Assembly: GCA_965214835.1 (NCBI GenBank)
Contig: CBDCCK010000002.1
Coordinates: 2,944,001 to 3,008,000, forward strand
DNA: 64,000 bases
Origin: Nitrosopumilaceae archaeon
GTDB taxonomy: Archaea; Thermoproteota; Nitrososphaeria; Nitrososphaerales; Nitrosopumilaceae
Direction: 5' to 3'
The position numbers and the translations under genes are program-made. The first letter of the stretch is position 1, and each line of letters begins with the position of its first letter. Shown here piece by piece: positions 6,147-17,368 of this stretch. Under the pieces are notes generated by a model. That model was given only the letters and a program-made list of their open reading frames with translations, ran no database searches and was not told the DNA's origin.

Positions 6147-6433
6147 GCGTTTTTGAGCAAAACAATAGATGATAAAGTTTTCCGCGCTGTAACATAGATG
6201 AATAACCGTGCCTGAACGCGTAAAAACAGCCAGTTTTTCGTACCTAAAATCGGGGTTATGCATCCATGGTAAAACGCCCGCCAGTAACATGGCAACGTTC
6301 CTTTCTTCTTCTGATCCGTGCCTAGTCGGCCGGGCCGTGCTTTATAGCTAACGCTAGCAATACGCACGAGCCAGTCCTGTCGCACCTGCCAGGGTGCGGG
6401 CGGATCATTGGGTGGGTGGGTGGGGGATGGAAG

Positions 6434-6541
6434 GTGGTAATCCTATGCCGTTCCCGCCAGTTCTGTCACGGCAGGATGTATGTTTTGCTTGCGGCATGTC
6501 ATCGAGTGGTAATCCTATGCCGTTCCCGCCAGTTCTGTCAC
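6434..6541. CRISPR. Single repeat-spacer-repeat unit (36/36/36 bp), CRISPR-like, possibly ectopic
   Basis: GTGGTAATCCTATGCCGTTCCCGCCAGTTCTGTCAC at 6434-6469 and 6506-6541; insert matches reverse complement of 49748-49783 at 34/36. Confidence 0.6.
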
Positions 6542-7624
6542 CCTCTTGATCTTCTTGTCGTACAGGGCAGCATTGCGCGATGAATACGCAGTCTTTGTCG
6601 TCAGCATGTGCCAGATTATCCTGAGCATCTTGTTTGCAACATGCGTTATCGCTATGACGTGGTTGTTGCCGTTCCTTTTGCGGACCCTCTCGTAGAACTC
6701 CCTCATCCTGTCGTCGTGCTGTACGGCGACGTTGGCTATCTGGATCATCAGCCAGTTGATCCTGCGGTTTGCATCCTTTTTCATGTGGCCGTGGTACTCG
6801 CGATCCCCCGACTGGTACACCCGGGGACACATGCCGGCCCAGGACACAAGCTGGTTCGGCGATGGAAACCTGGTTATGTCACCGATCTCTGCTATCAGCA
6901 GCATTGCTGCAAAGGTGTCTATTCCCGTCATGCTCAACAGCAGCTTGGCATCCTCGTTCGATCCTGCCTGTCTTCCTATGTCCTCCCCTGCTTGGTCTAT
7001 CTCCTCTGTGACGTGTACAATCCTCCTAGTGCAGCTTGCCAGTATCCTGTCATCGTTTGGCATGTTCAGCCTGGTATCGGAGATCTTCCGTATGGCCTTC
7101 TTGGAGTACATCGTGGATGCATCTATGGCTATATCGTACTTGTCAAGCCAAGCTGTGCAGCCCGTTTATGACTGCGGTCCTCTCCTGTACCATCCGTATC
7201 CTGTACCTCATCAGCTCCCTGACATCCCTCAGCTCTGCTGATGCCACGTAGCATCGTGGTATCATTCCGGCCCTGAGCGTGTCGGCTATCTTCCTTGCGT
7301 CTATCGGGTCGGTCTTTGCGCTGGTCTCTGATACTATCTTCATCTTGAGGGTGTTTGCAAGCAGTATGGGGATATGCTGATCCTCAAACGCCCTGAACGT
7401 CTTTAGCCACATGTTGCCCGTTGACTCGCATGCGGCCTGGCACTTTTTGTACTCTTTTTTCAGTCGTGCAGCAAGCTTTGATGCCTCCTTGTACGTGTTG
7501 TTATACGAGCCCTCCTCTAGCACGTGTCCCTTGGCGTCGATGACGCACACTGCGCATTTTCTCTTTCCAATGTCTATTCCTATGCTTCTCAATCCTTTTC
7601 TTTCACCTCCTTTTGGATATGGTT

Positions 7625-7765
7625 TGACAGATCAGAAGCTGCATTCATCCATCAGTGCGCGTAGCACAGGAACACAGCAGCTCGGATATCCCCATTCAAC
7701 AGGTAGTGCGCGAAGCACATGCATAACGAGGGGTTGATCCATCACCCTGGCTACGGCGGGGGCGT
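7625..7765 (-). ncRNA. Putative IS110 bridge RNA (two stem/internal-loop/hairpin domains)
   Basis: Minus strand: CCCC-loop-GTGC(TTCGC)GCAC-loop-GGGG then GAGCTGC-loop-GTGC(TACGC)GCAC-loop-GCAGCTT; loop segments match the element junction; ends approximate. Confidence 0.75.
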
Positions 7766-8064
7766 TTTTATCATGTGTTCAACAGGCTACGCGCTGTAAA
7801 AACCTGCAAAAATCTCACCATATTTACGATCTTTTTACTCATCCGTAGATCCATTACGGGGACTTGATCGCCAAATGCAGGGAAAATGACCAAGGCGGTA
7901 CGTGGTGGGCCGATTTGCCCGAGGAGACGCAGGAAGGCATGGAGTGTGAATAGTCCAGCCTCAATAGTTCTGATTGACCCAGTAGCCAGACTCGGCCCGG
8001 ATCGGGGGCTTGCTCGTACTCTTACAGATGCCCTGATGATGCGGGCAGGCATGATGCGTAGTAT

Positions 8065-9111
8065 CTAGCCGAGATAATCGCTCATCTGGCAGATTTTGAT
8101 CTCGCCCCTGCGCAACATGACGCGTATGGACTTTTGCATCTCGCCGACGGTCTGATACAGGCGGCTTGCAGTCGCCTTTTTGACCCCGCGCCACTGCCCC
8201 TCTATCGGGCTCAGCTCCGGCGTGTACGGCGGCAGGAACTTTAGCACCACATCACCATTCCATTCTGCCAGCTGCTCCCCGACCAGTGCGGCCCTGTGAT
8301 ACGATGCGTTGTCGACAAACAGCAGCACCTTGCCGTACTTGCGACGCAGCACCTTGAGAAACCTGATGGACGTGTGCTTGGCCGTTTTGTAAAAGCGGCA
8401 GTCAAGTCCGTTTGCCGACAGGGCACCGATCGAATAGAACCTCTCCTTTGACAGGTTGGACGGCGCAAAGACCGGGCCTTCCCACGGGATACCAGCTGTT
8501 CTTGACGTTCCACCCAAGGATGAACGAGGCCTCGTCCCCTATCATTGCCGTGTGCTCCCTCTTTGAATGGTACCTTACGTGCCACCTAGCTTTTTTTTGA
8601 ACTCTTCTTTCTCGGATTCTGAGGCTGGTTTTGGGTGCTTTGGGCGGGGGGCTTTCTGCATGAAAAGCCCAGGCATGTGCAGTATCTTGCATGCGCTGGA
8701 GACGGCATAGTCTGCCTTGTATTTCTTTTTGATGTGTACCGCAAGCAGCGGTGCGGTCCACACCTCCGACTCGAATCCGCAGCTGCGCGGGCCCGCAACC
8801 AGGTCGGCGCGCACCTGCTTGAGATTCCCTGCGTCCGGCCACATCTTGGTGCCGGGCCTCTTGATGTCGTACCTGCCCTGTATGCCAAGCTGCATGGCCC
8901 ATATCGGCCAGTCACGTATCGTAGAGTACCCCCGGCCGAGCTGCCTGGCTATCTGGCGTATCGAGTCGCCTTTTTTGCGACGCATGTAGGCCATCAGCCT
9001 GGCTGCGGCCTTGGAGTCGGTCTCGTTTTTGTACCTCTCAAAGAGGGACGGGGTCGAGACGTTGGGAAGAAACTTGCCCCCTGTTGGGATCATCGAGTAG
9101 TCTGGTTTCAT
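8065..9111 (-). mobile_element. IS630-family transposase (HTH ORF 8575-9111 plus DDE ORF), A8 slippery site, one further frameshift
   Basis: WTAPLL HTH region, DEAS, VDNASYH, LPPYTPELSPIE; TTCAAAAAAAAG at the ORF junction. Confidence 0.9.
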
Positions 9112-11209: not shown

Positions 11210-11769
11210 TGATCCCCCTCCGGCGTCCGATCCGAGGTATGTTTCAGCCGGCTGAAAAAAAACAGTCTTCCCAAAAGTTCCCCAAAGCGGCTTCAAACTC
11301 GAAACGGTTCTCAATCGCAGACACTATGCGCCACACCGGCACATCACGGCGCATCACTGACGCGGCCGCGCTGCCGGAAGTTCTGCCACGTGAGCCTGCG
11401 CCCCAGTATCCTCTCTGTCTCAGACACGTCGTCCCGGAGAAAGTCCCGCAGTCGGCGCCTGCCTTGGGGAGGTGGCGGACATGGATGTTATGGGAGTTGT
11501 TGTGTGATTCGATTTATCCTGTATAATTTGCTCATTTTCCAAGTCATTACATCTAGATCACGTCCAATGTGGGGATGGCGTGTGGAAATTTCAAGCATTT
11601 TGGCGAATTACGCAGCATCTATGTTAAAAACACCCGTCGTAGAAACGACGATGTTCCTAGTTTCTTCTGATCCACGCCTACTTGATCGTGGCCCACTTTA
11701 GCTGACGCTGGTTGCACGATGCAGTCGCGCTTGCCTTCTCCCGGTGCGGTCATGTCATATCCTCCCAGA

Positions 11770-11987
11770 TCATTGGGTGGGTGGTGGGGCAGGAGGTGAG
11801 TCACCGCAGGCGGTTTCTTTCCTCCTGGTCTTGACGGATCAGAAGCTGCAGTCATCTATCAGTGCGCGAAGCACAGGAACACAGCAGCTCGGATATCCCC
11901 ATTCAACCTCGAGTGCGCTGAGCACATGTCGCGTAAGGGGTTGATCCATCACCCTGACTACGGCGGTGGTGTTTTTATCACGTGCTC
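11770..11987 (-). mobile_element. Non-autonomous IS110 derivative (218 bp) retaining both ends and the bridge-RNA-like region
   Basis: Right end TCATTGGGTGGGTGG and about 155 bp of left-end sequence shared with 6405-7780; no transposase. Confidence 0.85.
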
Positions 11988-12215
11988 AACCCCCATGTTA
12001 TGATGCCAATCTTGCGCATCCGGCATTTGTAGATGATCCTGCACACATAAAATTGAGCTTGCCGCGCGTCTTCTCAAAAGTAACCCAAGCCAACGCATTC
12101 TGACCAAGGCAGATCAGTTAGGCACAAGTCTGCATGCAGATATAGCCTGCATTCCTGACAGGTGGATGGGACGTGGCCTCGTACGCTAAAATAGATCTGC
12201 GTCACATCCCAAACA

Positions 12216-15897: not shown

Positions 15898-17368
<1,471 letters not shown>

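Follow-up and report, generated by a model that had tools for sequence, protein, structure and literature searches.

The window, by which we mean the whole stretch of 64,000 nucleotides analysed here, carries on its minus strand an insertion element of the IS110 family that occupies positions 6261..7779, the right copy of its core dinucleotide included, as judged from the boundaries of its copies in the same genome. The host is an archaeon: the only 16S rRNA gene of the 3.22 Mb genome, found at about 15898..17368 on the minus strand, scored 1452.6 bits with the archaeal model vs. 1089.2 bits with the bacterial one. The transposase gene of the element is split. Its N-terminal, DEDD/RuvC-like part (7143..7592, minus strand) runs from a TTG start at 7592 to the in-frame TGA of a frameshift site, and its C-terminal part, which lies in the +1 frame (6515..7150, minus strand), contains a Transposase_20 domain with the sequence ...YQSGD... 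and stops at 6515. The non-coding ends measure about 190 nt on the left and, not counting an insertion described below, about 180 nt on the right. Beside the element, at 8065-9111 of the minus strand, there are two adjacent or overlapping frames that look like a split DDE transposase of another family (...LFVDNASYHRA...LPPYTPELSPIEGQW...); we assume that they resemble IS630/Tc1-type transposases.

The window copy is 1519 bp long, whereas copies lacking a 72-bp insertion measure about 1446 bp. The insertion, in the region 6434..6541, consists of a 36-bp direct duplication (6541..6506 and 6469..6434, minus strand), seen only in the window copy, and of a 36-bp fragment between its arms (6505..6470, minus strand). 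This fragment corresponds to an interior stretch of another multicopy repeat and has six identical and five near-identical copies elsewhere. The 72 bp are absent from one contig of another DNA run, which joins 6427-6506. Contigs of four public DNA runs yielded neither a circle junction nor an empty site, only the flanks of other copies and the insertion-free copy. The genome holds eight near-identical full copies of the element (98-99% identity, referred to as A-type), three diverged copies at 88-92% and two at about 65% identity, and a dozen short pieces that comprise the 5' region only.

The left junction, read on the minus strand, is TAGCCTGT-TG-AACACATG..., with the core TG at 7781..7780, as established by aligning the flanks of the copies in the genome. 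At the right end the junction is ...ACCATGGA-TG|CATAAC with the core at 6262..6261, as defined by the other copies and by empty sites. The comparison of filled junctions with empty sites thus places the left core dinucleotide at 7780..7781 and its right copy at 6261..6262, both on the minus strand. The first-pass annotation of this DNA had placed the left end correctly and the right end wrongly; copies and empty sites put the latter at 6262/6260. Comparison of the left end with the reverse complement of the right end revealed subterminal inverted repeats, CATGATAAAAACGCCC at 7760..7775 and GGGCGTTTTACCATG at 6265..6279 (minus strand). The A/T-rich part of the left repeat is possibly a TATA box for the RNA described below.

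The left target flank, TAGCCTGT (7782..7789, minus strand), was defined from the flanks of the eight near-identical copies and from empty sites; it forms the outer portion of one of the terminal inverted repeats that bound a small palindromic repeat. The right target flank, CATAAC (6255..6260, minus strand), continues into the palindromic repeat to about 6195, and CATAAC follows all ten A-type right ends in the genome. About 19 copies of the repeat have uninterrupted ends reading tAGCCTGT-TG-CAyAACC, and the empty site is TAGCCTGT-TG-CATAAC. As the comparison of filled junctions with uninterrupted sites demonstrates, the insertion is site-specific, uses a 2-bp TG core and does not duplicate the target. 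The target site can also be written as TAGCCTGTTGCATAAC. The landing site as a whole is a palindromic repeat of about 75 bp with about 20 copies genome-wide (in the window 6195-6260 and 7782-7789); it has the terminal inverted repeats tAGCCTGTTGCAyAACC and behaves in a MITE- or REP-like manner.

The 5' non-coding end of the element is predicted to encode, at about 7740..7636 of the minus strand, a bridge RNA composed of two modules, each made of a stem, an internal loop and a hairpin. The first-pass annotation had described two such domains upstream of the transposase on the minus strand, and both were found letter for letter, at 7733..7690 and 7683..7636. The target-binding module (module 1, 7684..7740, minus strand) has two outer helices, GGAT/ATCC and CCCC/GGGG. 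In the latter, CCCC at 7733..7730 faces GGGG at 7693..7690, and these enclose a 5' guide, TCGTTATGCAT (7729..7719), complementary to the core and the right target, the hairpin GTGC(TTCGC)GCAC (7718..7706), and a 3' guide, TACCTGTTGAAT (7705..7694), which is the sense sequence of the left target, the core and AA (all on the minus strand). The donor-binding module (module 2, 7636..7683, minus strand) is closed by the helix GAGCTGC (7683..7677) / GCAGCTT (7642..7636). Within it, again on the minus strand, the 5' guide TGTGTTCCT (7676..7668) is complementary to the start of the element, G+AACACA, the hairpin GTGC(TACGC)GCAC occupies 7667..7655, and the 3' guide TGATGGATGAAT (7654..7643) is the sense sequence of ATGGA-TG-AA, that is, of the element end, the core and the element start.

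All four loop strands match DNA once the true ends are set. The 3' strand of loop 1 (TA-CCTGT-TG-AA-T) has the sense of the left target, the core and the first two bases of the element, so that the loop-1 segment previously equated with left flank plus core, CCTGTTGA, indeed equals CCTGT, TG and the first base of the element. The 5' strand of the same loop (TC-GTTATG-CA-T) is complementary to (A)-TG-CATAAC: TCGTTATGCAT has the reverse complement A-TG-CATAAC-GA, which matches the right junction over 9 nt. It had been reported that this strand does not match the right flank, which is wrong; the match was missed because the right end had been misplaced, and with the correct right end the model that had been called incomplete is completed. 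In loop 2 the 5' strand (TGTGTT-C-CT) is complementary to G-AACACA, with one core base paired. The complementarity of TGTGTTC to GAACACA, noted earlier, stands, this sequence being a G followed by AACACA at the element start. The 3' strand of loop 2 (TG-ATGGA-TG-AA-T) has the sense of the circle junction. The 13-mer CCTGTTGCATAAC of module 1 occurs in the genome four times exactly and 30 times with at most one mismatch; about 0.1 exact occurrences are expected by chance. Searching 6300..8100 against Rfam 15 at E values up to 10 returned only partial matches at chance level and no bridge-RNA family. Thermodynamic folding alone was unremarkable (z -1.4 for 201 nt, z -0.9 for 116 nt). A C/D-box-like reading (GUGAUGG ... 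CUGA) was also considered and dropped: its motifs are not kept in the alignment A2 described below.

Conservation of the structure was assessed with a covariance model (R1) built from an alignment (A1) of 13 diverged copies from the same genome. A search of genome contigs with a single protein gave one locus only, and a class-wide protein search was used instead, which found a relative in 71 of 401 genomes (one of the 71, G282, was left out afterwards). The model was run on 30 loci from this search and two loci of the host genome. Homologues had been asked for earlier as a check of the bridge-RNA reading, and R1 matched 30 of these 32 loci, always directly upstream of the transposase gene and on the same strand; the two loci without a match were L057, where the contig ends inside the gene, and L053. 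In the resulting alignment A2, 88.1% of the cells pair, vs. 75.3% after shuffling and 37-49% in slid controls, and 20 of the 28 pairs show changes on both sides, values that were reached by none of 500 shuffles, with the caveat that A2 was fitted to the model, which favours structure counts. Compensatory base-pair changes occur in four helices. In the outer stem of module 1 and in both inner hairpins 97-98% of the cells pair, and compensatory changes are numerous there. Pairing is weak (67.7%) in the 5'-most helix, which overlaps the subterminal repeat and is probably a DNA signal rather than an RNA structure.

R1 found no match in three haloarchaeal loci. A broader model, R2, gave weak matches at the correct position in two of the three, those of Haloarcula (E 0.0012) and Halanaeroarchaeum (E 0.012), and no significant match at the third, a copy of ISHvo10. 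On haloarchaeal plasmids the upstream two-loop RNAs lie at 1020-1168 of locus L063 and at 1012-1165 of locus L064. By eye, both loci have a TG core, subterminal repeats and the guide order of the window element; in L064, for instance, the 3' strand is identical to GGCCT-TG-ACT and the 5' strand is complementary to TTTAGAC.

The matching of guides to flanks was then compared across elements. The guide strands were taken from A2. The left junction was located by the donor guide and TG (that of L051 was corrected by eye), and the right junction by eye, by the donor guide beside the subterminal repeat, thus the donor-guide match is partly circular. Among elements from other genomes TG was present at 22 of 22 left junctions, one of them placed by eye, and at 21 of 22 right junctions. 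The test set comprised 24 elements that differ in their target guides, 22 of them from other genomes and two from the host. Taking both target guides together, 218 of 263 positions match (shuffled mean 79.9); the 5-nt left-target guide contributes 106 of 120 (shuffled mean 36.7, maximum 62) and the 6-nt right-target guide 112 of 143 (shuffled mean 43.2, maximum 68). In each of the three comparisons none of 20,000 shuffles was as good as the observed pairing, so guides and flanks match beyond chance and the loops covary with the flanks across copies, as the first-pass annotation had expected of a true bridge RNA. Several of the guide/flank mismatches are G:T or U:G wobbles.

It must be noted which rows these numbers include. 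Four rows were dropped as guide duplicates of a kept row: L031, L015 (right flank 0/6), L020 (right end not found) and L052 (4/6). Three more were dropped for a junction that is off the contig or truncated (L034, L035, L042), and one, L050, for a target module that is cut off. Poorly matching rows were kept, namely L038 (right 1/6), L060 (right 2/6), L058 (right 3/6, off by one base) and L061, which has a decayed gene (left 3/5, right 1/5). One relative, L046 (in genome G227), lies within a microsatellite-like GTT/TGTGGT tract, to which the guides of this element, TGTTGT-TG / TG-TGTGG, correspond.

Within the host genome the picture is mixed. The guide pair of the B-type copies is another one, GTAGT-TG / TG-AAAATG; it agrees with their left flanks and agrees fully with only one of three right flanks, that of copy c1519223 showing no match. 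A second member of the family in the window (11616..11988, minus strand) is a transposase-less derivative of 373 bp that has kept its own bridge RNA. Its junctions are GGGGT-TG-AGCACG on the left and CATAGA-TG|CTGCGTAA on the right; the donor guide, ATAGATG, agrees with the diverged right end of the derivative itself, and the target guides agree for the most part with the flanks that surround it. The genome contains at least six transposase-less derivatives of this kind.

The transposase gene of the window copy is split at the +1 frameshift site CAC AGC TTG GCT TGA C (7140-7155, minus strand). The site is shared by ten of twelve aligned copies in the genome, including lineages that are 9-12% diverged, and is absent from c514651, the only copy with an intact gene, and from the distant copy c2137441. 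The intact paralogue, P0001, contains the domains PF01548 (E 7.9e-30) and PF02371 (E 2.5e-24) and can be aligned with PDB entries of the IS621 and ISCro4 recombinases so that the catalytic D, E, D, D and SG positions coincide; a GL-P----SG motif was recognized in it by eye. The window copy has the same catalytic motifs, split by the frameshift. The GCU-UGA-C shape of the site is one that we take to resemble known +1 frameshift sites. Such a distribution may reflect programmed +1 frameshifting, or spreading of the site by recombination between copies, or service in trans by the intact copy.

That ten of twelve aligned copies share one +1 frameshift could also mean that the RNA gene is real and that the window copy, with all A-type copies, is a dead relic. 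We find this unlikely. The eight A-type copies are 98-99% identical, reside at different loci and occupy sites that all match their own guides, so they must have moved after the frameshift arose. Between two frameshift-bearing lineages dN/dS is 0.29 in both halves of the gene (dS about 0.2), a value which indicates that the gene stayed under constraint. Moreover, the donor guides of the intact copy are identical to those of the frameshifted copies, which would permit service in trans. As far as the sequences allow us to judge, the window copy is probably served in trans or by +1 frameshifting.

The role of module 2 also deserves consideration. If only module 1 guided, as in a short seekRNA, the recombinase could read the element ends through the long subterminal repeats, and module 2 would be a structural scaffold that resembles the ends only incidentally. 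Subterminal inverted repeats of at least 10 bp with at most one mismatch are indeed present in 19 of 22 elements (range 10-22 bp), starting at left-end position 6 and right-end position 4 in 12 of the 19. Siddiquee 2024 describes short seekRNAs with target matches only, and target sequence was needed around the donor. The match of module 1 to the integrated junctions extends over 9-10 nt (CCTGTTGAA, ATGCATAAC) and is longer than its match to the empty site, and the 5' donor strand, which pairs one core base in the window element, pairs none in most relatives. Against this, the 3' strand of module 2 follows the element's own right end in every row examined, through five variants (ATAGG, ATAGA, ATGGA, ATGAG and ACAGA), and its 5' strand follows the different left-end variants (AAGGCA/AGCCTT, ACCTTA/TAAGGA, ACTTTA/TAAAGA, GAAGCG/TGCTTC). 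We therefore consider guidance by module 1 alone quite improbable. Still less credit, next to none, can be given to the idea that the region serves only as a promoter or 5' leader that proteins bind, and that its flank matches come from sitting in a repeat, since, although its folding energy is not exceptional and the target is a repeat, covariation of the guides with unrelated flanks is seen in 24 elements drawn from many genomes, four helices show compensatory base-pair changes, and elements outside repeats match too (e.g. L033, L044, L059).

Taken together, this part of the left non-coding end of an archaeal insertion sequence of the IS110 family is, with high probability, a bridge-RNA (seekRNA) gene. 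The bridge-RNA interpretation proposed in the first-pass annotation is borne out by the IS110 Pfam domains of the protein, the two-module shape, the compensatory changes in the stems and the covariation of the loops with the flanks. The RNA would be produced, perhaps from the A/T-rich box of the left subterminal repeat, and would be bound by the recombinase; the chemistry of recombination is presumably that of IS621, by homology. In such a mechanism the 5' loop strand of module 2 would pair with the top strand at the element start (G-AACACA), and the DEDD/serine recombinase with its RNA would join the circularised element (...ATGGA-TG-AACACA...) and the site TAGCCTGT-TG-CATAAC by strand exchange at TG, which would leave no target duplication.

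When the opposite DNA strand is read, the layout would map one-to-one onto that of IS621 as Hiraizumi 2024 describes it. The 5' strands would then be the left guides, the target one covering both core bases and the donor one only the first, and the 3' strands would be the right guides; in the target module, the dinucleotide that follows the core would serve as the handshake guide for the donor. On the strength of this mapping, the element is probably the same machine as IS621, working on a recombination site turned around with respect to the RNA and transposase genes. The tail that follows the core in the target module (AA, AC or GA) equals the first two bases of the element in 21 of 23 rows, which, with few independent events, is suggestive of a handshake guide. 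For the donor module, a comparison by eye of its tail with the first two right-target bases was no better than chance.

Bridge and seekRNAs are the basis of programmable recombinases, and those characterised are bacterial and come in two layouts. The present results extend well-supported, covarying bridge RNAs to archaea, indicate that where the RNA gene lies and in which strand order its guides stand can be combined otherwise than in the two bacterial layouts, and supply for testing more than 20 naturally occurring guide/target pairs whose core is TG. For the host genome they account for a multicopy element, its transposase-less derivatives and the preference for the ends of a small repeat. 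A 2024 preprint counted 662 archaeal IS110 recombinases and is silent on their RNAs, and a 2026 preprint catalogued 32,190 bridge RNAs in 86 models; in the main texts examined we found no description of the layout reported here, nor of archaeal bridge RNAs in detail; supplements may list it.

It is instructive to compare the element with the systems already described. It shares with IS621 and ISCro4 the same two recombinase domains, an RNA in the left end upstream of the gene, two pseudo-symmetric modules with the target module first and the donor module second, loops that each read both DNA strands around a shared 2-nt core, a donor left guide that pairs one core base, and handshake-like bases after the core of the target module. 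In IS621 the LDG has 8 nt and the LTG 9 nt (Hiraizumi 2024). The window element and its relatives differ from these systems in the reversed strand order within each loop. The first-pass annotation had pointed out that the sense-matching guide is on the 3' side, the reverse of the IS621 arrangement, and this agrees with the text of Durrant 2024. Further differences are the core, TG (CA on the other strand) here and CT in IS621, the long subterminal repeats, the right non-coding end of about 180 nt, the archaeal host, and a protein similarity that is only marginal (E about 1e-8).

According to Durrant 2024, in elements of the IS110 group the left end is long and the right end short, and the subterminal repeats measure 2-3 bp, whereas those of the IS1111 group have their RNA in the right end and long subterminal repeats, with many donor-binding parts lying in a multiloop. 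In the seekRNAs of the IS1111 type the top-strand match is 5' of the bottom-strand match, and in the IS110-type ISEc21 the order is reversed (Siddiquee 2024). With the IS1111-type elements ISEc11, ISKpn4 and ISPa11 our element has in common that the top-strand-complementary segment is 5' of the bottom-strand-complementary one, and it also has subterminal inverted repeats (the IS1111 criterion is 7-17 bp) and the GL-P----SG motif in the C-terminal domain. Insertion into the terminal repeats of other mobile elements is another shared trait, named in the title of the IS4321/IS5075 paper. The IS1111 RNA and non-coding region are, however, downstream of the gene, whereas here the RNA is upstream in 30 of 30 matched loci, and the donor part, often placed in a multiloop there, forms one of two simple internal loops here.

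The best protein matches among annotated plasmid records (30-35% identity) are to haloarchaeal elements of the ISHvo10 type, and none of the names among the plasmid matches listed places the protein in the IS110 or the IS1111 group. Siddiquee 2024 mentions as exceptions ISMtsp17, with its non-coding region upstream, and ISHvo10 and ISAcp5, which have long non-coding regions on both sides, and in this respect the window element is like ISHvo10. The literature examined describes no bridge RNA for ISHvo10, as far as its main texts go. ISEc21 resembles our element in its upstream non-coding region and in the size of its transposase (358 aa against 359 aa), and differs in that its top-strand match is 3' of the bottom-strand match, the opposite of the order seen here.

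The recombinase domains, the TG core without duplication, the two-loop RNA and the covariation with the target are those of IS110-family bridge or seekRNA systems in the broad sense, as is the donor complementarity, which is partly circular as the ends were located with the guide. The strand order is not that of the narrow, IS621-like IS110 group, and neither the short right end nor the 2-3 bp subterminal repeat of that group is present. The subterminal repeats and the strand order agree with the IS1111 group, and the position of the RNA does not. Because a defining feature of each named group is thus lacking, the element is classed only in the broad IS110-family bridge-RNA system. It is conceivable, although we would rather bet against it, that elements of the window class and the haloarchaeal ones represent a third, undescribed configuration, which combines an IS110-like two-loop RNA in the left end with IS1111-like strand order and long repeats, and whose recombinase gene may use a conserved +1 frameshift at GCU UGA C. 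If so, the recombination site would be inverted relative to the RNA and recombinase genes, the non-coding strand would be cleaved first, with the target-module tail as the handshake guide for that strand, and RNA position and site polarity would have evolved independently, making these archaeal elements a candidate intermediate between the two bacterial groups.
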